Shown here piece after piece: positions 36,067 through 56,879 of a DNA stretch of 64,000 nt (the stretch's first letter is position 1; every line of letters starts with the position of its first letter). The DNA is from Bacillota bacterium. Lineage in GTDB: Bacteria; Bacillota; Desulfotomaculia; Desulfotomaculales; Ammonificaceae. The notes under the pieces are model-generated. The model made no database searches, was not told where the DNA came from, and worked only from the letters and a program-made list of their open reading frames with translations. The DNA lies in the NCBI GenBank assembly GCA_040755295.1, contig JBFMBK010000007.1:35932-99931 (forward strand), read 5' to 3'. The translations under genes were made by a program, and so were the position numbers.

Positions 36067-36310
36067 ATGATTCCTTTACCTATCATGAAAATCACCCAAC
36101 CTCTTTAATGTCCTTCCTTAATATCCCAAGTATGATGTATATTCAGAATAAAAAAGTATCTTACCTAAAAAATCTGAATGATTAATTTTTCTTTTTAATA
36201 TTAAAGTACTGGGAAAATACTAGAGCGAGATTTAAAAGCTCTATTTAAGTTCATTGTACTTTGGTGTATTATTTTATACAACAGTGTTTATGTTTTCCAA
36301 GGAGGTCATT

Positions 36311-37075: not shown

Positions 37076-37107
37076 CAGGTGCCGTCACGAATTCGTGAAG
37101 GGGTCAG

Positions 37108-37953
37108 GTGGCAGTTATGTATTGGCGAATATCAGGCCGGAATGCGGTCTTTATTGTGGCTTTTTCCCAGTTGGTGCTGCTGTTTGTGGCTTATTACGTG
37201 CATTTCCAGGGAAAAGTCGTTTTCTCCCCAGGCCGGCTGGTTGTCCCGGTTGCCTTCGCGGCAAGCATACTGCTCGGTTTATACATCGCCAAGAGAATGG
37301 TTAACCTTTATGAAAAAGATGCTCTACTATCCACCAGAGCCGCTATGGCCGAGAGCTTCACCAGCCTGGCCCAATCGACGTATGCTCAGAACCGGGAGTT
37401 TACACGGCACATAGAGAGGATTTCATCCCTCTGCAGGGAAAACAGAGTTCAGGACCTGTCCGATTACCTCGCAGAAATGTCGGGGAACATCTCCGTGCTT
37501 AACAGCGTGTTGAAGGTGGACAATCCGATAATCGGCGCCCTTTTAAAAGCAAAAGCGACCGAGGCCGATATCAGGCGCATCAAGCTTGAGATCGATGTTT
37601 CAACCTCGCTTGATCATTTAGGGATAAGGGCTCTTGCGGTAGCGCGAATCATCGGCAACCTTATCGACAACGCATTTGATGCGGTTTCCGGTTTACAGGC
37701 GAACAGAAGGGTTGATGTGAGGCTCTACCGGGAAGGACCCCTGCTGCAGATTATGATCAGCAACCAGGGCCCGGCGATAAGTGCGGACGCCGCAAACCTT
37801 ATTTTCAACCCCGGTCACACCACAAAGGGAGAAGGCCACAGCGGCCTCGGACTGCATATAGTAAAGACCCTTACAGAAGAACTGCTCGGCAAAGTCGATG
37901 TTATTTCGGACGAAGCAAAGGGGACGTGTTTTACAGTGACCCTGCCGGCGTAG
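37108..37953 (+). CDS. GHKL sensor kinase (SpoOB/AgrC-type) with 2 TM helices and an atypical H-box
   Basis: N-box IGNLIDNAFDAV, G1 SNQGPAI, G2 GHSGLGLHIV. The H-box region reads AQNREFTRHIE, with Arg where RHDF-type kinases carry the phospho-His. Confidence 0.8.
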   Translation: MAVMYWRISGRNAVFIVAFSQLVLLFVAYYVHFQGKVVFSPGRLVVPVAFAASILLGLYIAKRMVNLYEKDALLSTRAAMAESFTSLAQSTYAQNREFTRHIERISSLCRENRVQDLSDYLAEMSGNISVLNSVLKVDNPIIGALLKAKATEADIRRIKLEIDVSTSLDHLGIRALAVARIIGNLIDNAFDAVSGLQANRRVDVRLYREGPLLQIMISNQGPAISADAANLIFNPGHTTKGEGHSGLGLHIVKTLTEELLGKVDVISDEAKGTCFTVTLPA

Positions 37954-37965
37954 TTTAGAGGTCGG

Positions 37966-37993
37966 GTGAGATGTGAGAGGTGAGATGTGAGAG
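37966..37993. repeat. perfect tandem 14-mer x2 (gtgagatgtgagag) within a GAGGTCGGG-type repeat
   Basis: Read directly: 37966-37979 is identical to 37980-37993, preceded by gaggtcggg. Confidence 0.8.
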
Positions 37994-38249
37994 GAAACCA
38001 AGAATAACCGCGGCATGTATTATATAACCTTACCGGGTTGAAAAACCAAATCCGTTCCACAAGGAAGTTTATTATTTTCCCCGTTGATGCTTTACGCTTC
38101 TACGCAGTATAATGCGGTTGGAGAAAGGCTGCGGCATAGACGACGAATCGCTGCCGATTGGCTTTCCAGCCGTCGTCTTCATAGATGCTCCTGCCGTTAA
38201 ACCGCTGGAGTAATTACTGTATGTTTTTGTTTTAGGAGGAAAATAGCGC

Positions 38250-39836
38250 ATGAGCATCAGGCATAAAATCCTAGCCGGTTATCTCAGCGTGTTTTTGATA
38301 TTTGTGGTTCTGGGTTTCATGGCGCTGTCAAGCATGCACCGGATGCAACGTTCCTATGACGACCTTATTGTTCACCGGGCCGGTACGGTAAGCAAAACAA
38401 AGAATCTTTTACTGGCGGTTGAATATGAGGCTTTGATGCTGCGAACATACCTCCTGACCGGCAGTCGGGAGTATCAAACCGAATTCCGGCGGCAGGCAGA
38501 CCAGGTGGACCGGCGGCTTGAAGAACTCGAGAAGGATCTGCGAACAAGCGATGAAAAAGCGCTTTTTAAGAATTTAAAACAAACGGTAGACGGTTTCACC
38601 GAGGTATACGCGCAGAGCATCGTTGCGGTGCGCGAGCGTCGGGACCTTACGGACCAGGAAAAGCTGACCGAGGTGGTTCGTCTTACGACGGCCCAGCGGG
38701 GTACGGTTCGCGGCGTAATCGCCCAGGGGCAGGCGTTCATCGACTACCAGCAGCAATTAATGGACGAGAAGGCGAAGAACAACGCCAGGCTGGTGAACAG
38801 AATTACCACCGTCGCCACCGTGCTCGGGCTCTTTTGTCTTCTCCTCGGAATCGCTGCGGCTCTTTATATTTCGAGGATGATCGCCGACCCTGTCCGGCGC
38901 ATTGAAGAGCAGGTGAAGCGTATTGCGGCGGGCGACCTGACGCCGCAGGAACTTGAGGTCGCTTCCAGGGACGAGATAGGGCGTTTAGCTCGATCATTCG
39001 GGGTTATGCTGATGAACCTGCGGCGTCTCACCGGAAGGCTTCAAGCCACAACGGAAGAGATGGGCAATTTTGCCGCCGATTTGCGGGAAAAGGCTCAGGA
39101 AGCAGCGGCAGCGTCCAGCCACACCACAGCCGTTCTCAACCGGGCTCTTTCCGCTATAGAGGATGTATGCAGCCGAGCGCAGAAACTGTCCGGGGTTTCA
39201 GAGCGCACCACGGAACAGTCCGAATACATCCAGGAAACGGCGACCCGCGTTTTAAACCAGATGGAATCGACGGTCCGAATCGCCGCCAGGGCCAGCAAGG
39301 GGGTTCGGGACCTCAGCGCGGCGCTGACGGATGTAAAGCAGATTATCGAGTTCATCTCGCAGTTTGCCGATCAGGCTGACCTCCTGGCCCGGAAGGCGAC
39401 AGACGAACTCACGGTGGAAGGAAACAGCGGTCAGACGCAAGGAGTCTTCGTGGATATGGCGCATGAAATCCGGACGCGCGCGCAGGAAGCCGCCCGCACC
39501 ACCCTTGATGTCGCAGGCCTGATCACGGCGGTACAGGAACATACGCGCGAGGTTATTTCCTCGGTTGACGAGGACTGCCGCCTGGTGGGCGAAGGGCGCA
39601 GCGCTACAAGGAAAGCGACGGAGGCCTTAAGCGGGCTCGTGAAGGAAGTGCGGGAGGTCACCGCGCAAATAAAGGAGACAGCGGAATCCAGCCGTGACTT
39701 CAGCGCCGCGCTTGAAGGTGTAACATCCGCTTCGAAGGCGCAGACGGCGCTGGTGGAAGGGGTCGCAAAGGCCTGCAGCATGCTGGACGACCTGGTCGTC
39801 GAACTGCAAGAGGCGCTGGCTGCGTTGAAGCTTTAG
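38250..39836 (+). CDS. MCP-like transmembrane protein (4HB-type sensor, HAMP, degenerate signalling domain)
   Basis: TM1, a helical periplasmic-type domain, TM2 and HAMP (ADPVRRIEEQVKRIAAGDL..DEIGRLARSFGVMLMNL), then a long coiled coil. The hairpin-tip consensus ([18 protein letters not shown]) is replaced by QADLLARKATDELTVEGNSGQ. Confidence 0.7.
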   Translation: MSIRHKILAGYLSVFLIFVVLGFMALSSMHRMQRSYDDLIVHRAGTVSKTKNLLLAVEYEALMLRTYLLTGSREYQTEFRRQADQVDRRLEELEKDLRTSDEKALFKNLKQTVDGFTEVYAQSIVAVRERRDLTDQEKLTEVVRLTTAQRGTVRGVIAQGQAFIDYQQQLMDEKAKNNARLVNRITTVATVLGLFCLLLGIAAALYISRMIADPVRRIEEQVKRIAAGDLTPQELEVASRDEIGRLARSFGVMLMNLRRLTGRLQATTEEMGNFAADLREKAQEAAAASSHTTAVLNRALSAIEDVCSRAQKLSGVSERTTEQSEYIQETATRVLNQMESTVRIAARASKGVRDLSAALTDVKQIIEFISQFADQADLLARKATDELTVEGNSGQTQGVFVDMAHEIRTRAQEAARTTLDVAGLITAVQEHTREVISSVDEDCRLVGEGRSATRKATEALSGLVKEVREVTAQIKETAESSRDFSAALEGVTSASKAQTALVEGVAKACSMLDDLVVELQEALAALKL

Positions 39837-40232: not shown

Positions 40233-40748
40233 ATGAAGAAAGTAATTGCCATATTCAGCGTCCTGCTCCTTGTCTTAGGTATACCGGCAACAGCCCTTGC
40301 GGCTACGGATACAACCAATGTTACGGGAGACATCGCAGAAACGATTTCCATCAGCACGCCGGCAACGATCGCTCTGGGCGCCCTGACGGTAGCAGCGAAC
40401 AACACGAGCGCCGACCAGACGCTTACCGTTTACGCCAACAACTCGAGCAAGACGGTGTCTCTCACGGTGTGTGACAACAATCAGGTTGCCGACATCGGGA
40501 AAATGGCGTCAGGGGCAAATATTCTGACTGACCCGCTTAACGTAAAAGGCGGGGACGTGGCCGCTTACACCGCCCTGCCCGAAGTCGCAGCCAGTACGAT
40601 CACCTTGGAGAATGCGGGTGCGGTAAACGGCGCCACGGGACAGTACCAGGTTACTGATTTCAGCGTGAGGCAGTACGTGTACTGGAGCGATGAGCAGGCT
40701 GCCGGTTACGCCATCACCCTGCTCTTTACAACCGGTTACACCACTTAA
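40233..40748 (+). CDS. secreted 171-aa protein consisting only of the CTD shared with the three giant proteins
   Basis: Signal peptide MKKVIAIFSVLLLVLGIPATALA/AT. The mature part aligns by eye along its length with the last ~135 aa of the giants (ISISTPATIALGAL~ISIIAPDGVSGWSL; VRQYVYWSDEQAAGYAITLLFTTGYTT~FKQTVGWVDQPLSGGYSYKIVVTFTASVTV). Confidence 0.85.
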   Translation: MKKVIAIFSVLLLVLGIPATALAATDTTNVTGDIAETISISTPATIALGALTVAANNTSADQTLTVYANNSSKTVSLTVCDNNQVADIGKMASGANILTDPLNVKGGDVAAYTALPEVAASTITLENAGAVNGATGQYQVTDFSVRQYVYWSDEQAAGYAITLLFTTGYTT

Positions 40749-41299
40749 CGGTTTGGGGGCGGTTATCGCCCTTCAGGATACCGGGCGTGAGGGCTTGAAG
40801 ACTTAACGGTGCCGGGATGCGCAGAATGCTGACCGGCACCCTCCAATTGGCCTGTAAGGTTCCGTCGGCGGTGGAAACGTTGAGCGCCCCGGCAACATGG
40901 GAACCCCTGCCGTACTCAGGAACATTCACGCGAAGCAGGTGTCTAAGTGATGTGAGGGTTGTTTCGATTAAGCCGGTACAGATAAAGACAGGCGGAACTT
41001 AGAAGATAAAAAGGGAGGTCGTGTGGCAGGGGAGGTGTTTACAATTCCGAGGAAGCGCCCGGACGGTGGGTTCGGTTTCGTTCATTAACTTATGGCCTCT
41101 CCCGCTTTAAACCATTTGATTGTCGCGGAGGGGAATGCCGTGAACGGACAGCCGCCTGGTTATAAGACAAGTCCATGTGCGACAACTTCCGGATTCGAGC
41201 CGAATGCCGGCAGGGTTGTCTTTTGCTTTTTACGGGCGGGTTCTGCATGTCAGACGCAATTATTCTACCATTATCGGGCTTTGGCAAGGGGGTAAAAAG

Positions 41300-42688
41300 T
41301 TGAGAAAGACGTTATCAGGGATTGTCGCTGTTTTGACGTTTATGTTAATTGTCGCCGTCTTTGGGGTTGAACGGGCCGGCGCGGCCTTCAGCGTCGGCGG
41401 CGCCATGGTGGACATGGAGGCTTCTCCCGGAACATATAAACATGTAATGCAGGTAAGCCTGGGACCCGACGACGCCGCCACCGATGTCCAGGTGATACTG
41501 GGGGGCCTCGGCCAGCAGTCCGACGGGGTCGTGAAGGTCCTGTCGCCGGCTGAAGACACCAGCCCTTATTCGGCATGCGGCTTCATCAGTCTGGACCAAA
41601 GCCGGTTTCACGTCGGACCGGACCAAAGCGTTCAGTTCAACGCCTTTATTAACATTCCGGAGAGCGTGGGCGCGGGGGGCAGGTACGCCGCTATCCGGGT
41701 CTGCACCGTTCCCTCGGGCGGGGGTACGCTGCAGGTTGCATCCGGGGTGGACATCCCCGTCAAGCTCACCATTAAAGGAACGAGTCTGACGCATACCGGT
41801 GAGATTAACGGACTCGGCGCCGGACCCGTAACCGTAGGAAAACCGGTAGAGATATCTACAACATTCAGAAACACCGGAAACCACCATTTCAAAATTAAGG
41901 GCTTTGTCACGGTAAGCAACGCCGACGGGCAGACGATCGGCAGCGCATCCATCCCTCTTACGGCTGCCAACGTGATTCCGACCATGTCCCGGCTGCTGAG
42001 ATCGACCGTTACGCCCGTAAGCGTTCTCACTGCAGGTGAATACACGATACATGCCAAGATAATGGCTGAGGACGGCGCCGTGCTGGACGAGGCCGAGACC
42101 AAATTCACCGTGAACCCGGAGGAAGACTTCACAGATATCGCCGGGCACTGGGCTGAGAATGATATTAAAACAATGGCGCGACTGGGCATCGTCAGGGGCA
42201 TGGGGGATAAAAGGTTCAACCCCTCGGGTGCGGTAACACGGGCGCAGTTCGCCGGTTTTCTTATCCGTAGTTTAAACATCCAAGAAACCCGGCCTTCTGA
42301 GGGCTATTTCGAGGATGTACCCTCGGACGCCTGGTACTATGGGGCGGTGGAGACGGCCTACGCCAACGGACTTGCCTTCGGTTACGGAGACGGGACCTTT
42401 AAGCCCGATGCGAACATAACGAGGGAGGAACTTGCGGCGATGGTGGTGAGGGGCCTTAATAAAGGTGGAAAGACAGTGGCCCCGGCGGACCATAAGGTTC
42501 TGTCGCAGTTCGTAGATAAGTGGAAAATAAAACAGTGGGCGCGGGATTCGGCAGCTATCGCCGTCAGGGAAGGCCTCATAAAGGGTCAGGAAGGCAAGCG
42601 GTTTGCGCCGTCTAAAAACGCTACCAGGGCGGAAGCGGTTGTAATGCTGAAGCGGATGCTGGTCAGCCTTGGAAGACTGTCCGGATGA
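41300..42688 (+). CDS. S-layer-homology (3x SLH) anchored protein with two-beta-domain N-terminal region (DUF916/DUF3324-like), paralogue 1
   Basis: TTG at 41300 after aaggggg. Signal peptide LRKTLSGIVAVLTFMLIVAVFGVERAGA/AF. The C-terminal SLH repeats are FTDIAGHWAENDIKTMARLGIVRG.., FEDVPSDAWYYGAVETAYANGLAFGYGDGTFKP.. and ..WARDSAAIAVREGLIKG. It is a paralogue of 48240-49697. Confidence 0.85.
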   Translation: MRKTLSGIVAVLTFMLIVAVFGVERAGAAFSVGGAMVDMEASPGTYKHVMQVSLGPDDAATDVQVILGGLGQQSDGVVKVLSPAEDTSPYSACGFISLDQSRFHVGPDQSVQFNAFINIPESVGAGGRYAAIRVCTVPSGGGTLQVASGVDIPVKLTIKGTSLTHTGEINGLGAGPVTVGKPVEISTTFRNTGNHHFKIKGFVTVSNADGQTIGSASIPLTAANVIPTMSRLLRSTVTPVSVLTAGEYTIHAKIMAEDGAVLDEAETKFTVNPEEDFTDIAGHWAENDIKTMARLGIVRGMGDKRFNPSGAVTRAQFAGFLIRSLNIQETRPSEGYFEDVPSDAWYYGAVETAYANGLAFGYGDGTFKPDANITREELAAMVVRGLNKGGKTVAPADHKVLSQFVDKWKIKQWARDSAAIAVREGLIKGQEGKRFAPSKNATRAEAVVMLKRMLVSLGRLSG

Positions 42689-42827
42689 GTGAGGGGGAAC
42701 CTATAGCTTAAAACGTAGGCAAAGACTGAAGGTCGTGACAGGCGGCGTTGCGGAGCTTTATTACGAGCGAAGCGGCGACGGTCCGAAGGCGAATCGCTCT
42801 GCGAGGAAAAGGACGGAGAAATTACCC

Positions 42828-45800
42828 ATGGTACTCTTGATGCGGCAAAAACCGAAGCATAGAAACCGCTATTTGTTATTGCGGCAAAGTCTGATGACAG
42901 CCGTAATGGTTGCTTGCTGCTTTATCTGCACCGGCACCGCCGCCCTGGCCGCGGGCTGGAGGACCGAGACGGTGGACAGCGGCGGGGTTGTCGGAGAATA
43001 CACGGGCATAGCCGTAGATTCGTCCGCGTACGCGCACATCAGCTATTACGACGGCACCAACACCGACCTGAAGCACGCCTACCAGGACAGCAGCGGCTGG
43101 CACACCGAGTTCGCGCAGGCATCGGCCGCAAACGATATCGGACAATGGACGTCGATAGACCTGGATGGGTCCGATTACCCATACATAAGCCACTACGGCG
43201 CGAGCGGCAACAACCTGAAATATACCTACCAGAACGTTTCGGGCTGGAACAACGAGGGACCGGATTCGACGGGCGACGTGGGCAAGTACACCTCCACAAA
43301 AGTGGATGCGTCGAATTACCCACACGTCAGTTATTACGACGCTACCAACATCTACCTGAAGTACGCTTATAAGGATGCCGGCGGCTGGCACATAGAGACG
43401 GCGGACACCGGTGCGGGGACATGGACTTCCCTGGCGCTCGACTCGTCAGGCTACCCGCACATCAGCTACAAATATTCCGGGACCAGTGATCTGAGGTACG
43501 CCTATAAAGACGCCGGCGGTTGGCACATCGAGAGCGTGGATACCGCGGGCAACACCGGGGGCCACACCGCTATCGTCCTGGACGGCTCGAACTACCCGCA
43601 CATCAGCTATCGCGACATCACCAACGCCAAATTGAAATACGCCTACAAGGACGGTTCGGGCTGGCATATCGAAGACGTGACCGTGGCCGGCAACGATGCA
43701 TGGTATACCTCGATTGCGCTTGATTCGTCGGGTTATCCGCATATCAGTTACTATGACTACGTAAACTTTGACCTCGGTTACGCTTATAAGGACGGCTCGG
43801 GCTGGCACATCAGTACCGTGGACGGCACAGGGGACGTCGGGGCGTACACCGCGATAGCGCTGGTGTCCGATATCCCCCGGATAAGCTACTACGACGGTAC
43901 CAACGGCGACCTGAAGTACGCCTGGTGGGACCCCGATACCGTCGCGCCTACGGTACAGAGCACCGACCCGGTTGATAGCGCTACCGATGTGATCGTCGGG
44001 AAAACAATTACCGTAACCTTCTCTGAGAATATCCAGGCCGGCTCGGCTTACGCGAGCGTAAACATAAAGGACCAGACCGGTGCGGATGTGGCGTTTGCCA
44101 AGAGCATCGCCGGCGATGTCCTCACCATCGACCCGACGAGCAATTTGAGTTATAGCGTGAGTTATACCGTGTATGTGCCCGCGAATTCAATAAAGGACAT
44201 GGGGGACAACGGCCTGGCGGCCGACTGCACGTTCAGTTTTACGACCGAAGCCGACACAACGCCGCCGGCGGTGCAGAGTACGGACCCGGCCAACGGCGCT
44301 GCCGGCGTGGTCGTGGGCAAAACGATCACGGTCACATTCAGTGAAAACATCCAGGCGGGCGACAATTACGCTCAAATCACATTGAAGGATAATAACAACA
44401 ATAATGCCGCTTTCACCAAGAGCATCGCCGACGCGGTGTTGACCATCGATCCGACCGGCGACCTCAACAGCAATTTAACCTACACCGCATCGATTCCCGC
44501 GGGTGCCATCAAAGACTTACTCAACAACGCGACTACAAGCGAATACAGCTTTAGCTTTACCACCGAGAATACGGGTTCCACCGCGACGGTGGACAGCACG
44601 GGCAACGTCGGGCAGTACACATCCATCAAGGTGGACGGGTCAAACAATCCTCGTATCAGTTACTACGACGTCACCAACGCCGACCTGAAGTACGCTTACA
44701 AGGACGGCAGCGGCTGGCACACCGAGACTATAGATAGTACAGGCACTGTGGGTTTGCATACCTCACTTGCCATTGACGCTTCCGGTTACCCCAGGATCAG
44801 TTATTCCGACAATACGAACTATGACCTGAAGTACGCTTACAAAGACGCCGCCGGCTGGCACACGGAAACCGCCGATAGTGGCGGCAGTGTGGGGCAATAC
44901 TCTTCTATTGCTCTTGACGGTTCCGGCTACCCGCATATCAGCTATCATGACTGGATTTTCAACTACGACCTCAAGTACGCTTACAAAGACGCCGGCGGCT
45001 GGCATGCCGAAACGGTGGATGGTGCAGGGAGTACAGGTACATATACCTCCATCGCGCTTAGTGTTTTGAATTACCCTTATATAAGCTACTACGATTACAC
45101 CAACTATGACCTGAAGCTGGCTTACAAGGACGCCGGCGGGTGGCATACCGAGACCGTGGACGGCGCGACCTACATGGTGGGTTCTTATACCTCCATAGCG
45201 CTTAATGGTTCCGGTTATCCGTGCATCAGCTACTATGACGATTCCAACGACGATCTGATGTACGCCTATAAGGACGCCGGCGGCTGGCATACAGAGACCG
45301 TTGACAGCACGGGCAGCGTGGGATCGTATACATCATTGGCCCTCGATACTTCCGGTTACCCGCATATCAGCTATTATGACGGCAGCCCACTCGATTTGAA
45401 ATACGCTTATAAGGACGGCTCCGGGTGGCATCTTCAAACCCTGGACAGTAACGGCACCGTAGGGCAATATACGTCGATAGACATCGACTCATCCAATTAC
45501 GCGCACATCAGCTATTACGACACGACCAACGGTGACCTAAAGTATATCTGGACGGGCGACACCAGTGCGCCGACGGTGAGCAGCACGGGCCCGGCATCCG
45601 GCGCGACCGGCGTACTCGTCGGTCAGACAATTACCGTCAATTTCAGCGAAAACGTGCAGACCGGGGACAATTACGCAAGCATCAACCTGAAGGATGAATC
45701 CGGCAATGACGTGGCCTTTGTCAAAAGCATCAACGGTGCGGCGCTTACGATCGACCCGACCAGCAACCTTGATTACAGCGTAACCTACACGGTCTACGTC

Positions 45801-48227
45801 CCGGCCGGCTGCGTCGAAGACATGGTAGGCAGCGCCCTGGCCGCCGACAACAACTTCAGTTTCACCACGGAGGCGGACACTTACGGGCCCACGGTGAGCA
45901 GCACCAATCCCGGTAACGGTACGGGTTGCGTGCCGACAGGCCAAACCATTACCGTTACCTTCGGTGAAAACGTCCAGGCGGGAAGCAGCTATGCGAGCAT
46001 CAACCTGAAAGACCAGTACGGCAATAACACGGCTTTTGGCAAGAGCATCAACGGCCAGGTGTTGTCCATCGACCCTACCAGCAACCTTAAGTATTCGGTG
46101 ACCTACACGGTCTATGTTCCCGCGGACTCGATCGACGACCTGCTGGGGAACGGGACGGACAGCGACTATACCTTCAATTTCACCACCGGAACCGGCACCG
46201 GTGACATGACGATCGTTGACGGCACGGGCTCGGTGGGGCAATATGCGTCGATAGCACTTGACGGTTCCGGCTACCCGCACATCAGTTACTACGACAGCTT
46301 CGTGAACTACGACCTTAAGTATGCCTATAAGGACGCCGGCGGCTGGCACACCGAGACGTTGGACAGCGCTGGGAGCGTGGGTACGTATACTTCTTTGGCT
46401 CTCGACGCATCCAATTATCCGCACATCAGTTATTACGACGGCACGAACTACGACCTCAAGTACGCCTATAAGGACGCCGGCGGCTGGCACACCGAAACCG
46501 TGGACAGCGCGGGGAGCGTGGGACAGTATACGTCGATCGCCCTTGATAATTCAAATTACCCGTATATTAGCTATTACGACGCTACTAACTATGATCTCAA
46601 GTATGCGTATAAGGACGCCGGCGGCTGGCATGTAGAGACCGCGGAGGGCGCCAACAGCGTGGGAATGTTTACGTCCATATCCCTTGATGCGTCGAACTAC
46701 CCGCACATAAGCTACTACGACAACGTACCCAACTACGATCTGAGGTACACGTACAAGGACGCCGGCGGCTGGCACGCCGAAACCGTGGACAACAGCGCTA
46801 CCTATCCCGGCCAGTACACGTCGATAAAGCTGAACGCGTCCGGTTACCCCCACATCGGCCATTACGACGGTTCCAGCGCCGACCTCAAGTACGCCTATAA
46901 AGACGCCGGCGGCTGGCACTTGGAAACCGTCGACAGCGCGGGGAGCGTCGGATCTTATACATCATTGGATCTCGACGCGTCGGACTACCCGCACATCAGT
47001 TATTTTGACGGCGGTAACTGGGACCTGAAATACGCCTTTAAGGACGGCAGCGGGTGGCATACATACACGGTTGATTGCACGGGGATGGTCGGACAGTTCA
47101 CGTCGCTGGTCCTCGACACGAACGACGTGGCGCATATAAGCTACTACACGGTAACAAACGCCGACCTAAAGTACGTTAGTTGGTCGCCGGGAAGCAGCCC
47201 GGCGGTAGACAGCACCGACCCGGCGGGCGGGACCGTTGACGTGGTGGTCGAAAAAACCGTTACCGTTACCTTTGACGCGGACATTCAGGCCGGCGACAAC
47301 TACGCCCAGATAGACGTGAAGCACCAGAACGGCACAAGCATTCCCTTTACAAAGAGTATCGCGGGCGCGGTGCTGACGATCGACCCGACCGGCAACCTGG
47401 CCAACAGCGTCAGCTACACGGTGTACGTCCCGGAAAACGCGGTGAAAGACCTAAACAACAACGGACTGGCCGACGATTACACCTTCAGCTTCACCACCGA
47501 GGCGGACGCCGGCGCGCCGACGGTGCAGAGCACCGACCCGGCAAACGGCGCCACCAGCGTGGCGATAGACAAGACCATAACCGTCACCTTCAACGAGGAC
47601 ATCCAGGCGGGTGACAACTACGGACTTGTCAACCTGAAGGACCAGGGGGGCGTCGATGTGGCGTTTACCAAGAGCATCGCCGGCGCGGTGTTGACCATCG
47701 ACCCGGACAGCGACCTCAGCAACAGCGTTACGTATACCGTTTACGTTCCAGCGGGCTCGGTGAAAGACCTTACAAACAACGCCCTTGCTGCCGACTACAC
47801 CTTCAGTTTTACCACCATAAGCGGGTCGACCACCATCAGCATCATCGCGCCGGACGGCGTCAGCGGTTGGAGTCTGGACCCGTCCGCCGGCCAGCCCGAG
47901 ACAGAGTCCGGCACCCTTTCCGTTACCGTTGATCCTGCCGGCACACCCTGGGAGGTCACGGCGGCCGACAGCGACACCGTCAATACCAACGGGAGGATGA
48001 CCGCCTGGAACGGTTCCTACGACACCGACAGCAAACTGCAGAACGCGATGAAGATTGCGGGAGATTACGAGGTGACTTTGCCCAGCGGCGGTAAGATCGC
48101 CGACGGCGCCGGGGGAGGGTCCGTCCCGGTGACCTTCAAACAGACGGTGGGCTGGGTGGACCAGCCGCTATCGGGGGGCTACTCCTATAAGATTGTTGTC
48201 ACCTTTACCGCATCGGTCACGGTGTAG
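42828..48227 (+). CDS. giant secreted protein 1: [7-bladed propeller - Big_5 - Big_5] x3 - CTD
   Basis: The ORF is open from 42735. The ATG at 42828 gives the signal peptide MVLLMRQKPKHRNRYLLLRQSLMTAVMVACCFICTGTAALA. It has 21 copies of the ~47-aa repeat (G.YTSIALD.SGYPHISYYD..N.DLKYAYKDAGGWH.E.VD) and 6 Big_5-type Ig domains (P.V.STDPANGA.GV...TITVTFSENIQAG.NY..I.LKD....V.F.KSI.G.VLTIDP...L....YTVYVP....KD...N.LA.D..FSFTT). No SLH, LPXTG or TM anchor. Confidence 0.9.
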   Translation: MVLLMRQKPKHRNRYLLLRQSLMTAVMVACCFICTGTAALAAGWRTETVDSGGVVGEYTGIAVDSSAYAHISYYDGTNTDLKHAYQDSSGWHTEFAQASAANDIGQWTSIDLDGSDYPYISHYGASGNNLKYTYQNVSGWNNEGPDSTGDVGKYTSTKVDASNYPHVSYYDATNIYLKYAYKDAGGWHIETADTGAGTWTSLALDSSGYPHISYKYSGTSDLRYAYKDAGGWHIESVDTAGNTGGHTAIVLDGSNYPHISYRDITNAKLKYAYKDGSGWHIEDVTVAGNDAWYTSIALDSSGYPHISYYDYVNFDLGYAYKDGSGWHISTVDGTGDVGAYTAIALVSDIPRISYYDGTNGDLKYAWWDPDTVAPTVQSTDPVDSATDVIVGKTITVTFSENIQAGSAYASVNIKDQTGADVAFAKSIAGDVLTIDPTSNLSYSVSYTVYVPANSIKDMGDNGLAADCTFSFTTEADTTPPAVQSTDPANGAAGVVVGKTITVTFSENIQAGDNYAQITLKDNNNNNAAFTKSIADAVLTIDPTGDLNSNLTYTASIPAGAIKDLLNNATTSEYSFSFTTENTGSTATVDSTGNVGQYTSIKVDGSNNPRISYYDVTNADLKYAYKDGSGWHTETIDSTGTVGLHTSLAIDASGYPRISYSDNTNYDLKYAYKDAAGWHTETADSGGSVGQYSSIALDGSGYPHISYHDWIFNYDLKYAYKDAGGWHAETVDGAGSTGTYTSIALSVLNYPYISYYDYTNYDLKLAYKDAGGWHTETVDGATYMVGSYTSIALNGSGYPCISYYDDSNDDLMYAYKDAGGWHTETVDSTGSVGSYTSLALDTSGYPHISYYDGSPLDLKYAYKDGSGWHLQTLDSNGTVGQYTSIDIDSSNYAHISYYDTTNGDLKYIWTGDTSAPTVSSTGPASGATGVLVGQTITVNFSENVQTGDNYASINLKDESGNDVAFVKSINGAALTIDPTSNLDYSVTYTVYVPAGCVEDMVGSALAADNNFSFTTEADTYGPTVSSTNPGNGTGCVPTGQTITVTFGENVQAGSSYASINLKDQYGNNTAFGKSINGQVLSIDPTSNLKYSVTYTVYVPADSIDDLLGNGTDSDYTFNFTTGTGTGDMTIVDGTGSVGQYASIALDGSGYPHISYYDSFVNYDLKYAYKDAGGWHTETLDSAGSVGTYTSLALDASNYPHISYYDGTNYDLKYAYKDAGGWHTETVDSAGSVGQYTSIALDNSNYPYISYYDATNYDLKYAYKDAGGWHVETAEGANSVGMFTSISLDASNYPHISYYDNVPNYDLRYTYKDAGGWHAETVDNSATYPGQYTSIKLNASGYPHIGHYDGSSADLKYAYKDAGGWHLETVDSAGSVGSYTSLDLDASDYPHISYFDGGNWDLKYAFKDGSGWHTYTVDCTGMVGQFTSLVLDTNDVAHISYYTVTNADLKYVSWSPGSSPAVDSTDPAGGTVDVVVEKTVTVTFDADIQAGDNYAQIDVKHQNGTSIPFTKSIAGAVLTIDPTGNLANSVSYTVYVPENAVKDLNNNGLADDYTFSFTTEADAGAPTVQSTDPANGATSVAIDKTITVTFNEDIQAGDNYGLVNLKDQGGVDVAFTKSIAGAVLTIDPDSDLSNSVTYTVYVPAGSVKDLTNNALAADYTFSFTTISGSTTISIIAPDGVSGWSLDPSAGQPETESGTLSVTVDPAGTPWEVTAADSDTVNTNGRMTAWNGSYDTDSKLQNAMKIAGDYEVTLPSGGKIADGAGGGSVPVTFKQTVGWVDQPLSGGYSYKIVVTFTASVTV
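42954..43931 (+). repeat. propeller array 1 of giant 1 (7 blade repeats, velcro-type closure)
   Basis: It starts with an isolated GWRTETVD strand and ends after DLKYAWWD without one. Seven ~47-aa units were counted by eye. Confidence 0.75.
44577..45560 (+). repeat. propeller array 2 of giant 1 (7 blade repeats)
   Basis: TATVDSTGNVGQYTSIKVD... through ...DLKYIWTGD. Seven units counted by eye. Confidence 0.75.
46200..47185 (+). repeat. propeller array 3 of giant 1 (7 blade repeats; most uniform copies)
   Basis: MTIVDGTGSVGQYASIALD... through ...DLKYVSWSP. Adjacent units share long identical DNA stretches, for example tataaggacgccggcggctggcacaccga at 46325 and 46466. Confidence 0.75.
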
Positions 48228-48239
48228 GGGGAGCGTATC

Positions 48240-49697
48240 ATGTGTCTAAAGTCTTTTATAGCATGCCTGCTGGCATTTTCACTAAGCCTTGCGCCAGCAA
48301 ACACTTGTTTTGCGAATCCCGGTTTGGTGGTCGGTGGGGCCACCATCGACAGGGAGGTCGGTCCCGGTATTTACAGCCACGTAATCGCGGTCAGCCTGGG
48401 GCAGGGAGACCCGGCCACCGACGTCCAGGTTAATGTGAAGGGTTTCGGGCAGAAATCCGACGGCGTCCTGGAACCTGTTTCGCCTGCTCTTGACACCGGT
48501 CCGTACACGGCGCGCGGCTTTATCAACGTAGACAGCGCGTCGTTTCACCTTGATCCGGGAGAATCGAAGGACGTTAACGTCACTATCAACGTTCCCGGCG
48601 GCGTCGGTGACGGAGGAAGGTACGCGGTGATAAGCGTTTGTTTGTCTCCTCCCGCCGGGGGAGACGTCAATGTGGCGTCCGGCATAGTCGTCCCCGTCGT
48701 ATTGACCATTCAGGGGAGTGAGTTTGTTCACAGCGGGGAGATAAGCGGCCTGTCCGCCAATGTTGCAAACGAGGGACAGTATGTAGAAATAATGACCGGT
48801 TTTCGAAACACGGGGAACCATCACTTTAAAATTAAAGGAGAGGGTACGGTATACAGCGCCGGCGGACAGGCGCTCGCAACGATAAGCGAGCCGCTTGCCG
48901 CTTCTTCATTGATCCCCGCCATGTCCATGCTGCTTAAGGCAACTTACGCGCCGGCGGGAGGACTCAGCCCGGGTAATTACTCGGTCCTTTCTAGGGTGAT
49001 GCTTGAGGACGGCACCCTGCTGGACGAAGCCACCGGGCAGTTTACGGTGACTGTTAAGACGCCCGGACCCGCAGGCGGCGGTTACTCAGGTTTGCCGGGG
49101 AGAAACCCAAATGTCAATACGCCATTATCCCCGGCATTTAACGATATCGCCGGGCACTGGGCTGAAAGCGACTTAAAGGTAATGTCCGGGTTGAGAATCG
49201 TCCGCGGGGTCGGCGGCGGAAAGTTCTGTCCGGACAGGCCGGTTACCAGGGCGGAGTTTGCGGCCTTTTTGATCCGGAGCCTGGGTATCGAAGAAGTCCA
49301 ACCGAAGGGCGGTCATTTCAAGGATGTCCGGGACGGCGATTGGTATTACGGGGCGGTGGAAGCGGCTTTTAAGGCGGGACTGCTGCGGGGATACCCGGAT
49401 GGTTCCTTGCGGCCGAACGCCCGGATTACCAGGGAAGAGATCGCCGCAATCCTGGCACGGGTTTTGACCCAGAACCAGAAACAGGCAACAACCGATATCG
49501 AGACGGTGTTAGCGCGATTCACCGATCGGATAAGGATCGCCATTTGGGCCCGAAAGGCAGCCGCGCTGACCGCGCAGGAACGCATAATCGAGGGCCGGAG
49601 CGGTGGGCTGTTTGCGCCAAAAGAGAACGCGACCCGGGCGGAAGCGGTTGTCCTGCTGAAACGGATGCTGGTCAGCCTCGGGAGGCTGTCTTGTTGA
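48240..49697 (+). CDS. SLH-anchored (3x SLH) protein, paralogue 2
   Basis: ATG 12 nt after the giant-1 stop. Signal peptide MCLKSFIACLLAFSLSLAPANTCFA/NP. The domain order matches 41300-42688 (..GRYAVISV.., ..FRNTGNHHFKIKGEGTV.., SLH FNDIAGHWAESDLKVMSGLRIVRG..). Confidence 0.88.
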   Translation: MCLKSFIACLLAFSLSLAPANTCFANPGLVVGGATIDREVGPGIYSHVIAVSLGQGDPATDVQVNVKGFGQKSDGVLEPVSPALDTGPYTARGFINVDSASFHLDPGESKDVNVTINVPGGVGDGGRYAVISVCLSPPAGGDVNVASGIVVPVVLTIQGSEFVHSGEISGLSANVANEGQYVEIMTGFRNTGNHHFKIKGEGTVYSAGGQALATISEPLAASSLIPAMSMLLKATYAPAGGLSPGNYSVLSRVMLEDGTLLDEATGQFTVTVKTPGPAGGGYSGLPGRNPNVNTPLSPAFNDIAGHWAESDLKVMSGLRIVRGVGGGKFCPDRPVTRAEFAAFLIRSLGIEEVQPKGGHFKDVRDGDWYYGAVEAAFKAGLLRGYPDGSLRPNARITREEIAAILARVLTQNQKQATTDIETVLARFTDRIRIAIWARKAAALTAQERIIEGRSGGLFAPKENATRAEAVVLLKRMLVSLGRLSC

Positions 49698-49724
49698 TTA
49701 GTTAAGATAGCCGCAGGTTAAGAA

Positions 49725-49800
49725 GAGGCATGAAGAAACAGTGGGGGGCGGTTACTCCTACAGGATAGTGGTCACCTTTACCGCATAGGTTGTTGTTTAA
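49725..49800 (+). pseudogene. relic of the 3' end of a CTD-encoding gene (last ~15 codons only)
   Basis: ggcggttactcctacaggatagtggtcacctttaccgca (49748-49785) encodes GGYSYRIVVTFTA. This is nearly identical to the giant-2 end (ggcggttactcctacaggattattgttacctttaccgca). The sequence upstream has no further similarity to the giants. Confidence 0.75.
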
Positions 49801-49851
49801 CCATACTTTAAGACATGCGGATACTTTAACCGCTTCAGTTTTTTCACAAGT

Positions 49852-49886
49852 CCTGCTTTTAAATTAGTAAGCAGGTCTTTTTTTTA
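49852..49886 (+). terminator. rho-independent terminator after the relic
   Basis: Stem cctgctt / aagcagg with a 10-nt loop, then tctttttttt. Confidence 0.7.
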
Positions 49887-50049
49887 GTCCCAAAATGGTA
49901 TTATCCGTTGTATATTTAGATAAATCCAGGGTGAAAATTATAAATCCGATATGGAAACGGCGTCAGTTGTTGCCACGTGAAAAGACAATTATACGTGAAA
50001 AGTAAGGACAAAGCAGACGAGTAATTTTAATTAAAGGAGAGGATGCCGA

Positions 50050-51294
50050 TTGAAACCATCAAAACCCAAAGTCGAAGTAAACGGTTGGACAACCAGGCGG
50101 TTGACCTGGCGTGGTTCCCTGATCTCGGCCGTTGTGTTTGCGCTTGCGCTCGTTGCCGCGTTTACGGACGGCGTGGCCGCAGCCGGCGCCTGGAACATTG
50201 AAACGGTGGACAGCGGGGGAAGTGTCGGGAAGTGGACCTCTATGGCTATTGACCCGGCGGGATCCTCCCACATCAGTTACTACGACCGGACCAACGGGGA
50301 CCTGAAATACGCCCGCCAGGACGGAGGCGCGTGGGTCATTGAGTTTGCGAAACAAGCCGGCGCCAACGTGGGGAAGAGCACGTCGGTCGCGCTCGACGCG
50401 TCCGGTTACCCGCACATCAGTTACTGTACCGGCGGTACACCCACTAAATTAATGTACGCTTATAAAGACGCTTCCGGTTGGCATTCCGAGCTCGTCTGGG
50501 GAGGTACGGTAGACGTCGGCGAATACAACTCGATAGCGGTAGACGCGGACGGATACCCCCACATCAGCTTCTACAATTCCCAGGGCCGTTTGATATATGC
50601 GTACAAGGACGCCGGCGGCTGGCATTTCGAGGGGGTGGACGCATCGGTGAATGTCGGCGGCGCTTGGAATTCCCTGGTCCTCGACAGTGCCGGCAACCCG
50701 CATATCAGCTACAAGCGCATCACCTGTTGGTCAAAAAGAACCTACAATTGGACCCTAAAGCGCTGGATCTATAAGGAGTGGCTCGAACACAATCTGGCAT
50801 ACGCTTACAGGGACGGCGCCGGCTGGCACGTTGAAATCGTGGACAGCGGCAACAGAATGGGCCCGTATGACCACCTGATAGATACTACTTACGTGGAGGA
50901 AATGGAAAAGCCGAGAACGGGCAGCCACGGCTCGATATGCCTTGACGCCTCCGGTTTACCGCATATCAGCTACCGCGGCGGCGCGGCCTTGAAGTACGCT
51001 TATAAGGACGCCGGCGGCTGGCACGTCGAAAAGGCCGATGATGCAGCTACGGCCAATTTCACTTCAATAAAAGTGGGGGGTTCCGGCAGGCCGCAAATCA
51101 GCTATTACGACATTGTAAATTGCGATCTGAAGTATGCTACGAGGGATGCTTCCGGCTGGCTCATTGAAACGGTAGACTCCATCGGTGTTGTCGGCAAGTA
51201 TTCGGCCCTGGCGCTGGACGCCGGCGAGAATCCCCGCATCAGCTATTATGACGAGACAAACGCTGATCTGAAATACGCCTGGCAGGCCCCGTAA
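50050..51294 (+). CDS. secreted/membrane-tethered stand-alone 7-bladed propeller protein (same repeat family, no Ig, no CTD)
   Basis: TTG start after aaaggagagg, then a hydrophobic N-terminal segment SLISAVVFALALVAAFTDGVAA. There are seven blade repeats, one of them carrying a ~35-aa insertion (..KRITCWSKRTYNWTLKRWIYKEWLEHN..). Confidence 0.85.
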   Translation: MKPSKPKVEVNGWTTRRLTWRGSLISAVVFALALVAAFTDGVAAAGAWNIETVDSGGSVGKWTSMAIDPAGSSHISYYDRTNGDLKYARQDGGAWVIEFAKQAGANVGKSTSVALDASGYPHISYCTGGTPTKLMYAYKDASGWHSELVWGGTVDVGEYNSIAVDADGYPHISFYNSQGRLIYAYKDAGGWHFEGVDASVNVGGAWNSLVLDSAGNPHISYKRITCWSKRTYNWTLKRWIYKEWLEHNLAYAYRDGAGWHVEIVDSGNRMGPYDHLIDTTYVEEMEKPRTGSHGSICLDASGLPHISYRGGAALKYAYKDAGGWHVEKADDAATANFTSIKVGGSGRPQISYYDIVNCDLKYATRDASGWLIETVDSIGVVGKYSALALDAGENPRISYYDETNADLKYAWQAP

Positions 51295-51326
51295 ATGCGG
51301 GTGTAAACTAACAGACGTGAGTAAAA

Positions 51327-51358
51327 AGAGCACCGCGGGCGCGGTGCTCTTTATTTTG
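51327..51358 (+). terminator. rho-independent terminator
   Basis: agagcaccgc / gcggtgctct GC-rich stem followed by ttatttt. Confidence 0.75.
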
Positions 51359-51558
51359 CTTTAAGGTTTCCGGGTGGAAAAAGCGTAAAATAATTGGTTT
51401 AAACGCTTCAATGACTTTGCGCTGAATTTAAAATACTGCTGGAAAATTACCGGGCAAGAAGGAAAAATGCGAATAAAGGCGAAAAGGTGAATAATCGGCT
51501 ATCAGTACACAACATTTCGCGGGCCGTTACGGGTGGCTTCAGCCTAAACGAAAACTGA

Positions 51559-54500
51559 TTGAAAGCTGGTCGAACTATGGTTCTCGTAAGGTGGGTAACC
51601 CGTTTCGCTTTCAGGTGTTGTCTGCCCAGACGCAGAATGGTACTGGGGACGGCGCTTTTTTTCTTTATACTTGCGGTTGTTGGGACGTGTGACGTTGCCT
51701 TGGCGTTTCAGACTCCGGGATACTGGGCAACGGAGTACGTCGCCTACGAGGGGCACACCGTAGGAAGGTTTTCATCGCTTGTACTTGACGGGTCAGGAAA
51801 TCCCCACATCAGCCATTACGATGCGACTAGCGGCGACCTGCTCTATTCATACGAAGACGGCTCAGGCTGGCACACCGAAAACGTGGACGGCGCCGGGAGC
51901 GACGTGGGGAAGTACACGTCCATCGTCCTTGACGGCAGTGGTTACCCCCATATCAGCTACTACGACACCACCAACGGCAACCTGAAATACGCTTACAAGG
52001 ATGCCGGCGGCTGGCACGCGGAGACCGAGGACCAGGACACGGCCGGCAACGTCGGGCAATATACGTCGCTGGCCTTGAACGGGTCCGGGTATCCATGCAT
52101 CAGTTACTACGACGTTAGCAACACCAATCTCAAGTATACCTATAAAGACGCCGGCGGCTGGCATGCCGAGAACGCCCATGGTTCGGCCAACGATGTTGGG
52201 AAGTACTCGTCCATGAAGCTGAACGCGTCCGGGTACCCCTGTGTCGGCTACTACGATGCGACGGCCGGCGACCTGAATTACGTCTATAAAACCGCCGGCG
52301 GCTGGCAGGCGCCCGCCCAGGTGGACGGCGCCACGAACAACCAGGGGCAGTACTCGTCGCTGGCGTTTAACGCCTCCGGGTATCCGTGCATCAGCTACAT
52401 CGCCGTTGCCAACAACAATATCAGGTACGCCTGGTGGGACGGCGCAGCCTGGAACAAACAGGCCGCATCCGCCGGGATCTTTCAGGGCACGGATACGTCC
52501 CTCGCCTTTGACAACAGCGATCTGCCTGCGATCAGTTATTGCGATTTGTCCGGTGACCTGAGTTACGTGTACAAAGACGCCGGCGGCACCTGGTGGTCTC
52601 AACACCCGAACGTAGCTTGTGGATCAACTTATCAAACCTCTTTGAAATTCGACGCTGACGGCAACCCACGCATCAGCTGTTACTACTCGACCACAGGGAT
52701 ATTAGGTTATGCTCGGTGGGTCTACGATGCCGCTGCGCCGACGGTACAGAGCACCGACCCGGCAAACGGCGCCACCGGCGTGGCGCTTAATAAAACCATT
52801 ACCGCCACTTTCGACGAGAACATTCAGCAGGGCGCCAACTGGAGCAGCATCGCCCTAAAAGACCAGGCCGGCGCCGACGTTGCTTTTGCCAAGAACATCG
52901 CCAACAGCGTCCTTACCATTGACCCGTTTAGCAATTTCAACTACGGCGTGACCTACTGGGTGTACGCCGTGGCCGGTTCGGTAAAGGACATGGCCGAGAA
53001 CGGTTTGGCGGGCGACTACGTGTTCAGCTTTACCGCCGTGGCTGATACGACGGCCCCTACCGTCAGCAATACGAACCCTTCTAACGGCGCCATGTACGTT
53101 CCCCTGACCAAGACGATAACCGTCACTTTCAACGAGAACATCCAGGCCGGGGACAACTACGGCAGCATTACCTTGAAGGACAGTGCGGAAACAACCGTGG
53201 CTGTCACCAAAAGCATCAACGGTGCCATACTTACAATCGACCCCGACGGCAACCTCGACTATAGCGAAACCTATACGGTGCGGCTTCCGGCCGGTGCTAT
53301 CGAGGACGTGTGGGGGAACGGCCTTGCCGGTGACTACACCTTCAGCTTCACCACGTCAGGCTGGTGGACCGAGACCGTGGACGGCGCAAGTGCCAACGTG
53401 GGGCAATGGACTTCGATTAAGATCGATGCTTCCGGTTATCCGCATATCAGTTATTACGACACCACCAATACCGATCTTAAATACACTTACCAGGACGCCG
53501 GCGGCTGGCACACCGAGACGATCGACGGCGCAGGTGTCAGCGTGGGGCAGTATACGTCCTTGGCCCTTGATACTTCCGACTATCCGCGCGTAAGCTATTA
53601 CGACACGACCAACGGCGACCTAAAGTATGCATATAAAGACGGGTCTGGCTGGCACACTGAGCAGGCGTCCGGCGCCGGCGTCAACTCGGGTTTATACACC
53701 TCAATAATTCTTGATGCGTCCGGCTACCCCCATATCAGCTACCTTGAGTGGTACAACTCTGGTCCATACGGAGAACCTTTATATAATCTCAAGCATGCTT
53801 ATAAGGACGCCGGCGGCTGGCACACCGAGACGGCGGACGGCGGTGATTGTTTCGGCGACACTACTTCGATCGACCTGGACGCGTCCGGTTATCCCCACAT
53901 CAGCTATTGCAGCGCGATATACGATGTGTGGCAGGATACTTATGTCGCCAACCTCAAATATGCGTACAAGGACGGGTCGGGGTGGAACTTGAGTGCCCCT
54001 GATAGTGCGGGTGACATCAGCGGTCACTGGCCGTCTCTGACCCTGGATGATTCTGATTATCCTCATATAAGTTATCAAGATAGCGCCCACCTGGAGTACG
54101 CATATAAGGACGGTAGCGGCTGGCATTACACCACTGTCGATAACTCAGCGGGTTCATGTACGTCTATCAGCCTGGACGTTTCCGGGTATCCGTGTATAAG
54201 TTACAGCGGCGGGCTTAAATACGCCTATAAAAACGCGTCCGGCTGGCACACGGAAACCGCGGACAGCGCAGGCTACTATACGTCGTTTGCCTTCGACACG
54301 TCCGGCCTCCCTCATGCCAGCTACTGGGACAACGCCAACGGCGACCTGAAGTATGCTTACCGGCCGGCCGATGTCTACCTGCCGACGGTACATAGCACCA
54401 ACCCTGCCGATGCGGCCGTTAACATCCCGGTAACCAAGACCGTCACGGTCACCTTCAGCGAAAACGTGCTGGCAGGCGCCAACTACGGACTGATCACCCT

Positions 54501-56400: not shown

Positions 56401-56450
56401 TTGCTGTATAACATAAGCTTGCAGAAAACCTTAAAGGTTCTTTGCGGAAT

Positions 56451-56484
56451 ACAAACCTGCAGTTAAATGCAGGTTTGTTTATTA
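56451..56484 (+). terminator. rho-independent terminator
   Basis: acaaacctgca / tgcaggtttgt 11-bp stem with loop gttaaa, followed by ttatta. Confidence 0.75.
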
Positions 56485-56879
56485 TAACAGTTGTTTGGCC
56501 CGCGGTTTGCCGAACCGGCAGACCGCCAAGCCACCGGGGTTCTATAATCAGTCGTACGACTCTGATGGATACCGAATGCGCCTGGCGACTTAAAATTGTC
56601 AAAAAATTCTGACAAATAAAACCAGAATTTTCTCTAAAGAAACACAACCGCAATAACGAAAATTATTATGTAAATAAGTATGGCCTCCTAACATATCACA
56701 ATTAAAACCGTAGCCTATTGTACCATATTGCGAAAAATAATTTCTAACGCTCGCAGCCTATTCAATATTACTAATCCAAAGACATTAAGGTGTTGCCTGA
56801 AGACTTTCTAAGGCTGAAAGGCTTTAGCGGGAGGGCGAGGCGAGTGGTTCCAAGAGAACCGGCCGGGCAAATAATCGGC

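Follow-up and report, generated by a model that had tools for sequence, protein, structure and literature searches.

A Divergent WxL/WxLIP-Type Gene Cluster With a Predicted Pilin-Like Cargo Domain and an SLH Anchor in an Ammonificaceae Bacterium

Introduction

What is the role of a domain that terminates three giant secreted proteins and that also makes up, by itself, a small secreted protein of the same gene cluster? The question is raised by a locus of a Bacillota bacterium (Desulfotomaculia; Desulfotomaculales; Ammonificaceae; GenBank assembly GCA_040755295.1), of which a stretch of 64,000 nucleotides, positions 35,932 to 99,931 of contig JBFMBK010000007.1, was analysed and is called the window in the following. 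On the plus strand of the window, at 40.2-61.6 kb, lie in this order the genes for a small protein, a protein with SLH repeats, giant 1, a second SLH protein, a 414-residue protein, and giants 2 and 3. The cluster is of a divergent WxL/WxLIP type, its cargo domain being predicted as pilin-like and its anchor consisting of SLH repeats, and the system to which it belongs spans Bacteria and Archaea. We consider it fairly probable that the C-terminal domain (CTD) of the giants belongs to a non-covalent surface-display system of two components, of which it is the half carried by the cargo, and that it would be strand-completed by an anchored partner, the SLH protein encoded next to it.

One Domain Family in Small and Giant Secreted Proteins

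The small protein (171 residues; 40233-40748, plus strand) starts with a signal peptide of approximately residues 1-24, which is followed by a single copy of the domain up to the stop codon; it is identical to P0003, the protein AB1500_07000 of a metagenome-assembled genome (MAG) assigned to a Bacillota bacterium. Giant 1 (1830 residues; 42735-48227, plus strand) consists of a signal peptide, arrays of a 47-residue repeat interleaved with pairs of Ig-like Big_5 domains (E 2.4e-137) and the CTD directly in front of the stop codon (48225-48227). Giant 2 (1613 residues; 51559-56400) and giant 3 (1596 residues; 56790-61580; matching P0018), both also on the plus strand, are built in the same style. 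An earlier note on this DNA had proposed that the four proteins carry copies of one domain, and all four copies are indeed present, in frame and on the plus strand. Three of the intervals it gave translate as quoted; the fourth, 47818-48224 in giant 1, starts two nucleotides out of frame and yields stop codons, the true interval being 47820-48224. The envelopes of the profile hidden Markov model (HMM) of the family are slightly longer than the limits proposed there, extending over 47769-48224 in giant 1, 55945-56397 in giant 2 (residues 1463-1613) and 61134-61577 in giant 3 (residues 1449-1596), with E values of 1.3e-27, 5.5e-29 and 9.2e-29, respectively, and 4e-42 for the small protein. The giant 1 copy is dropped by the bias filter of HMMER and its score needs the option --nobias.

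Are the four copies homologous? The CTDs of the giants, which are 135-150 residues long, share 64-71% pairwise identity, and the small protein is 27-31% identical to them across about 135 residues. Pairwise BLASTP of the small protein against the CTDs is not significant (E 0.2). Smith-Waterman scores lie 5.8-9.9 standard deviations above those of 500 shuffled sequences, none of which reached the observed scores, and profile-profile comparison with hhalign of the CTD set and the small-protein set gives a probability of 89% and an E value of 2.3e-6 over 131 columns. With an HMM made from 106 further members of the family, all four window copies are retrieved at E values of 4e-42 to 3e-26. The four-way alignment thus withstands shuffling, profile comparison and the family HMM, and the small protein is, judged by these comparisons, a true, distant homologue of the CTD.

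Some details proposed for the domain change when the whole family is considered, for which 165 sequences, 130 free-standing and 35 C-terminal copies, were examined. A central block of the CTD had been described as nearly invariant although the passengers of the giants differ, which is overstated, because the adjoining Big_5 domain is likewise 68-79% identical between the giants. The tripeptide in ISGWSL, which had been taken as a sign of WxL character, is a subfamily trait, the respective column holding W in 55 and G in 73 of the 165 sequences; the conserved tryptophan is found instead in the strand SWEVTA (W in 114, V or L at the +2 position in 151). The alternating hydrophobic last strand to which attention had been drawn is real and general, as the pattern Y-x-h-x-h-x-[FLYW], where h is a hydrophobic residue, occurs within the last 25 residues of 159 members.

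How large is the family? An HMM of the four copies, the first check suggested in the earlier note, recovers a large one: the profile search of 1.84 billion proteins (cluster representatives, HMMER) returned 1085 at E<=1e-3, of which 357 reach E<=1e-10. With one CTD as query, a word-indexed search had found two proteins, one of them (P0002) a free-standing secreted version, while the small protein as query had found five close relatives and a joint profile five more; the orphan status that the word-indexed search suggested was overturned by the 1085 representatives of the exhaustive profile search. Approximately 80% of the members are secreted domain-only proteins of 150-195 residues, composed of signal peptide and domain, and in approximately 20% the domain sits at the C-terminus of larger proteins of 239-1801 residues, whose passengers include Big_5/repeat giants, subtilisin-like proteases and a trypsin-like protein. 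In 164 of the 165 sequences the domain ends at most three residues before the stop codon. The family therefore has the placement of WxL domains, which are either the sole domain of a small secreted protein or the extreme C-terminus of a large one.

Pfam and NCBIfam contain no family shared by the four copies and 106 diverse members, and a search of PDB sequences with the family profile retrieved nothing. Weak scattered matches to PKD_6, MarB and EF0750_LPXTG were judged to be noise or signal-peptide matches. A known enzymatic or sorting domain, which would have explained the conservation in the absence of any docking role, was thus not encountered among Pfam, NCBIfam or PDB sequences. A TasA-like fibre subunit was considered and ruled out by the absence of a camelysin/TasA (Peptidase_M73) Pfam match in the 106 members. 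In the literature on donor-strand, SLH, archaeal-sheath and archaeal WxL systems no description of the family was found; the domain is an undescribed one with a predicted pilin-like fold.

The Anchored Partner Proteins and WxLIP

Partner protein 1 (503 residues as listed; 41177-42688, plus strand; SLH E 2.6e-41, partner HMM E 5e-123) contains a two-domain module after the signal peptide (residues 69-314; nt 41381-42118) and three C-terminal SLH repeats (approximately nt 42128-42685). Partner protein 2 (485 residues; 48240-49697, plus strand; SLH E 4e-35, partner HMM E 4e-120) has the same module between signal peptide and linker (residues 27-271; nt 48318-49052), and the linker is followed by three C-terminal SLH repeats (approximately nt 49137-49694). 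Across the module the two proteins are 52% identical. When partner 1 is read from its listed GTG start (41177-41380), a hydrophobic signal peptide begins at about residue 40 and the mature module at about residue 69; to judge from this arrangement, the annotated start is probably over-extended upstream.

To what are the partners related? The WxLIP proteins of WxL clusters, for which annotated plasmids of Enterococcus, Listeria, Melissococcus, Lactiplantibacillus, Lactococcus and Bacillus served as reference, consist of DUF916, DUF3324 and a transmembrane helix (Hassan, Chaudhuri and Williamson 2023; PMC10599100). Alignment by hhalign of 53 partner modules with nine DUF916-DUF3324 proteins gave a probability of 95.8% and an E value of 6.7e-9 over 226-232 columns that cover both domains, as compared to E 0.77 for the reversed profile and E 0.19 for the best of 20 column shuffles. 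In an earlier hhalign comparison with small alignments the pairs partner/WxLIP and family/WxL had both scored 2-3% probability, and with deeper profiles only the partner/WxLIP comparison turned significant. Among 22 diverse partners, nine matched the Pfam model WxLIP_PGBD (PF06030; best E 5.4e-4) and one WxLIP_HBD (PF11797; E 0.016), all under the curated thresholds. Because of the hhalign alignment over both domains and the independent WxLIP_PGBD matches, the N-terminal two-domain module of the partner is accepted, on the level of sequence profiles, as a remote WxLIP homologue. The two window partners themselves have no match to the Pfam WxLIP models at E<=1-10, and the HMMER partner profile did not retrieve EfmWxLIP1 from the PDB sequences. 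Solved structures named EfmWxLIP1 are deposited as PDB 9i1y and 9i25; a WxL-domain chain was absent from the PDB copy searched. An AlphaFold2 (AF2) model of the partner, made from a two-sequence alignment, has a predicted local distance difference test (pLDDT) score of 48 and shows domain 2 as a confident beta-sandwich; Foldseek with this model returned generic Ig/CARDB-like sandwiches only and not EfmWxLIP1.

Among the reference clusters, pXO1-like and pBc10987-like Bacillus plasmids carry trios of small WxL, DUF916 and large WxL genes (L059:4298-6059, L064:1822-5541, L065:1771-5489), which are located in a region resembling a type IV secretion system (T4SS) transfer region beside CpaF/VirB11. 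These plasmid clusters may serve as mating adhesins.

Synteny and Taxonomic Range

Do family and partner genes also occur together outside the window? With the partner N-terminal module alone as query and one genome per species, 43 loci were retrieved, four from Bacillota MAGs, six from Dehalococcoidia/Chloroflexota and the remainder from Methanoregula, Methanolinea, Methanothrix, Methanocella and Methanosarcinales, several of the archaeal loci residing on complete chromosomes of 2.4-3.6 Mb. A family-domain gene is found on the same strand and at most 600 nt away in 41 of the 43; of the two remaining loci one is cut by the contig end and the other has family genes at a distance of 1.8 kb. Synteny of family and partner is therefore near-obligate across Bacillota, Dehalococcoidia and methanogens. 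The modal arrangement is two family genes per partner gene (20 of 44 clusters, the window counted). The order small protein, SLH protein and CTD-bearing Big_5 protein recurs in three loci (L001, L007, L013), and in L003 a 322-residue protein comes after the small one and shares 38% identity with the N-terminal region of the SLH partners. Typing of family domains as A or B by their C-terminal motif was given up as too crude outside Bacillota for a rule of one of each per cluster.

The anchor of the partner varies with the host. It consists of three SLH repeats in Bacillota and of an extra domain plus a transmembrane helix with a basic tail in Dehalococcoidia and Methanoregula; the 322-residue partner of L003 ends in a transmembrane helix and basic tail, with no SLH repeats. 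Partners of Methanolinea and Methanocella end in a PGF-CTERM-like segment (PGFG, a hydrophobic stretch and RKGG; L041, L043, L045, L047, L050, L052), which implies, as far as the motif can tell, archaeosortase-dependent lipid anchoring of the partner. In five loci of Methanothrix and Methanosarcinales (L034, L035, L044, L049, L055) unanchored partners of 262-276 residues alternate with 3-5 small family paralogues.

L006 and L001 share a syntenic site flanked by sspH and an HTH-S24 repressor gene (L006:1791-2300; L001:10001-14407), at which L006 has the small protein only and L001 has small protein, SLH partner and Big_5-CTD protein. The difference looks like insertion or deletion of partner and cargo genes.

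Predicted Fold of the CTD

Structure prediction for the CTD alone, which had also been recommended, was run with AF2 on the giant 1 copy (47820-48224) and a 16-sequence alignment and yielded a confident all-beta core. The model has a pLDDT of 79.9 and a predicted template modeling score (pTM) of 0.73, with values of about 90 in the core and about 50 in residues 1-30, where some 25 residues of low prediction quality connect one short N-terminal strand to the core. In a Foldseek search of the PDB nearly all of the top 50 matches are chaperone-usher pilins (FimA, FimG, PapA, CfaB, CS20, Caf1), with probabilities of about 1.0, E values from about 4e-3, template modeling (TM) scores of 0.45-0.55 and identities of about 10-15%. 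Weaker matches were obtained to two archaeal donor-strand fibres, the cannulae and Hyper2 (9h8b, 9bab). The predicted fold is accordingly described as pilin-like, with a match too loose to class the CTD among the chaperone-usher pilins.

A Plug and a Socket?

How could such a domain hold a giant protein at the cell surface? It could be imagined that the family domain constitutes a beta-sandwich plug and the WxLIP-like two-domain module of the partner a socket. After Sec export, domain 1 of the partner would complete the sandwich of the family domain by adding a strand or hairpin next to the N-terminal strand of the latter. The candidate for the added segment is the conserved region GLGQ..DG...DTSPYSA of the partner. 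The giants would in this way be tethered by their C-terminus, with the propeller-like repeats and Big_5 passengers facing outward, while the SLH repeats of the partner would fix the socket to the secondary cell-wall polymer. The 171-residue domain-only protein would take a further place on that platform; the 2:1 ratio of genes, modal among the clusters, suggests that it is a second co-resident subunit, as was proposed for small WxL proteins, rather than a cap, a primer or a competitor for the site, which the earlier note had considered. In WxL systems, AF2 predicts that a hairpin of DUF916 fills a gap in the WxL sandwich beside its N-terminus (PMC10599100). Strand complementation is likely the binding mode here, in view of the pilin-like predicted fold, of an N-terminal strand that has no settled place in the monomer model, and of the like binding predicted for the WxL-WxLIP pair. 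The earlier note had suggested a terminal docking or strand-donating module, and this proposal fits better than the alternatives tested, considering the pilin-like fold, the strictly C-terminal position, the adjacent partner and its WxLIP homology. We infer the whole of this reading, including the physical contact, the strand mode and the stoichiometry, from anatomy and synteny.

Several observations weigh against it. The Pfam WxL model (PF13731) matches neither the three CTDs nor the small protein at E<=1 and none of 106 diverse members at E<=0.01, nor does any NCBIfam equivalent. The hhalign comparison of the family with 15-26 WxL sequences is weak (probability 3-20%), its E value, 0.018 at first, dropping to 0.0012 with larger WxL alignments, with column shuffles at E>=0.15-0.5. 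The register of the motif match is ambiguous beyond the N-terminal hairpin I-x-I-x-x-P-x-x-I-x-[FL]-G, which is the clearest shared element. The TM scores of the pilin matches are modest (0.45-0.55), and the model of the partner is poor for domain 1 (pLDDT about 30). The window itself has four family genes for two partners, Methanothrix partners are devoid of any anchor, and L006 keeps a small protein with no partner nearby.

A WxL HMM run on 109 family sequences found six at E<0.01, as compared to 0-1 in 20 shuffled sets. Two W-x-L motifs, the hallmark of canonical WxL domains, are not present in the family, which has one conserved W-x-[VL] strand and a C-terminal strand of the form Y-x-h-x-h-x-F. 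At the level of sequence the family domain thus resembles canonical WxL domains too weakly to be assigned to the WxL family, and the equivalence of their roles is well supported by context. The WxL analogy drawn in the earlier note consequently proved a good lead for the system as a whole, in view of synteny and because the adjacent partner is a remote WxLIP homologue; its starting point, the tripeptide, was wrong, and neither a dual motif nor a match to the WxL model accompanies it.

Could the domain instead build a fibre? The small proteins would polymerise head to tail by donor-strand exchange, the CTD giants would be tip adhesins in the order known from FimH, and the partner would act as PapD-like chaperone, as basal anchor or as both. 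The Foldseek matches, almost all of them chaperone-usher pilins and in addition archaeal cannulae and Hyper2 fibres, agree with this proposal, as do the N-terminal 30 residues, which are left unplaced in the monomer model as a donor strand would be. In the chaperone-usher pathway the C-terminal carboxylate of the pilin is clamped by the chaperone, and the strictly free C-terminus of the family domain recalls this. Most in favour of a fibre or soluble complex, and at odds with simple tethering, are the Methanothrix loci, in which 3-5 small paralogues, comparable to major and minor pilins, alternate with unanchored two-domain partners of 262-276 residues, about the size of a chaperone; because these partners have no anchor, tethering is not the universal role of the family/partner pair. 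However, neither an usher nor another assembly machine is encoded in the window or the related loci, and many clusters encode only large CTD proteins and one anchored partner, as in the pattern CTD protein, partner, CTD protein of Methanolinea and Methanocella, so that a candidate for the major subunit is missing. Moreover, the giants retain the N-terminal strand region, which would be needless in a tip subunit, the partner is homologous to WxLIP and not to PapD, and the modal 2:1 gene ratio suits a complex better than a polymer. A donor-strand-exchanged fibre therefore appears rather unlikely to us. A broader version of this idea, which we regard as quite unlikely, is that the family is the subunit of an usher-free donor-strand pathway, so far unrecognised and common to monoderms and archaea, with domain-only proteins polymerising into fibres or lattices, CTD enzymes and adhesins as tips or decorations, the partner as chaperone and base, and Gram-positive WxL clusters as a late and specialised offshoot of an ancient system.

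Direct binding of the CTD to the wall, to peptidoglycan or a secondary polymer, with the partner merely stabilising the complex, is what has been claimed for WxL domains, for which peptidoglycan binding was reported (PMC10599100; PMC9772566), and the clusters follow the same logic. However, family and partner are abundant in methanogens and Dehalococcoidia, and the feature that depends on the envelope is the anchor of the partner, not the family domain. Methanogenic archaea and Dehalococcoidia are not known to contain peptidoglycan. Since many hosts would thus lack it, direct wall binding is improbable as a general role. Even less credible is a role of the CTD as a signal for secretion or sorting that is cleaved off and read by a dedicated machine, in the manner of the CTD of the type IX secretion system (T9SS) or of sortase and exosortase substrates. 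Its strictly C-terminal position on very diverse passengers, its all-beta structure and its roughly appropriate size would agree with such a signal; however, neither sortase-like, T9SS nor other export genes were found in the window or the related loci, known sorting-domain models gave no match, and the role is most improbable because approximately 80% of the members have a Sec signal peptide, the domain and nothing else, which leaves no cargo to be sorted.

Other Features of the Window

The passengers of the giants (within 42735-61580; e.g., 44673-45013, 46242-47059 and 55045-55664) contain tandem arrays of a 47-residue (141-nt) unit, YPHISYYD..N.DLKYAYKD..GWH.E.VD..G.VG.YTSIALD, interleaved with Big_5 pairs. 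The unit looks like a propeller blade and has no match in Pfam or among PDB sequences. A protein of 414 residues (50050-51294, plus strand) consists solely of these repeats and matches neither Pfam nor the family HMM, containing no family domain; it is assigned to the cluster by its position, and in L007 a homologue of its gene likewise follows the second SLH partner.

Genes for a LytTR response regulator, a histidine kinase and a methyl-accepting chemotaxis protein (MCP)/HAMP protein lie immediately upstream of the small protein (36254-39836). Since L007, a relative, has them in the same order, they may regulate the cluster. Antisense open reading frames of 267-404 codons within the giants and an SLH gene (minus strand; 58764-59978, 45537-46490 and 41345-42148) most likely result from the GC-rich, repetitive nature of the coding sequence and are not genes.

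Comparison With Known Systems

WxL clusters are usually treated as something special to lactic acid bacteria and Bacilli, with peptidoglycan binding as the explanation of what they do. The same three-part logic with a homologous partner is now found far outside this range, in uncultured Bacillota, Dehalococcoidia and several methanogen orders. Because only the anchor changes with the envelope, a protein-protein dock between the CTD and the two-domain partner would be the conserved core to which these data point. The cluster provides a first testable handle on an unannotated family of more than 1000 cluster representatives, the members of which seem to hold giant adhesin-like proteins and proteases at surfaces that are difficult to study, namely SLH-bearing walls and archaeal S-layers. 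In addition, a portable plug-and-socket pair could serve surface display.

How does the system compare to others? Chaperone-usher pilins and tip adhesins (FimA, FimG, FimH, PapA, CfaB) are the best structural matches of the CTD model, FimH has the same order of passenger and pilin domain, and both systems have a partner with two Ig-like domains and a functionally exposed C-terminus. In contrast to them, the window and the related loci encode neither an usher nor a PapD-family chaperone, there is no outer membrane, and the partner is anchored and related to WxLIP. TasA, the AbpA bundling pili, the CanA cannulae and Hyper2 resemble the family in being small secreted all-beta subunits of monoderms and archaea that assemble in a chaperone-free manner, but those systems have neither a conserved two-domain partner nor C-terminal fusions to large passengers.

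The comparison with WxL clusters reaches furthest. Differences exist in the last strand, which is Y-x-I-x-V-T-F in the family and T-W-x-L in WxL domains, in the anchor, which consists of SLH repeats in the window partners and a transmembrane helix in WxLIP, in the motif NQIDKxxxYFDLK at the N-terminus of WxLIP, which the partner does not contain, and in the small LPXTG protein and the sortase, neither of which is found in the window cluster. The host range also differs, comprising Clostridia-like Bacillota MAGs, Dehalococcoidia and methanogens in the one case and described as almost confined to Lactobacillales and Bacillales in the other. What the two have in common is the cast of three parts: WxL clusters consist of a small WxL protein with no other domain, a large protein that ends in a WxL domain, and a WxLIP (PMC10599100), and the system described here of a domain-only secreted protein, large C-terminal carriers and an anchored protein with two Ig-like domains. 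The 171-residue protein is the domain-only member of the window cluster and, by analogy, the probable counterpart of the small WxL protein. Similarly, 98 of 179 WxL clusters are composed of two WxL genes and one WxLIP gene (PMC10599100), in line with the modal 2:1 ratio observed here. Finally, the N-terminal strand of WxL domains is tied to the core via a long irregular segment (Hassan and Williamson 2023; PMC9772566), as it is in the CTD model, and the partner is a remote homologue of WxLIP over both of its domains.

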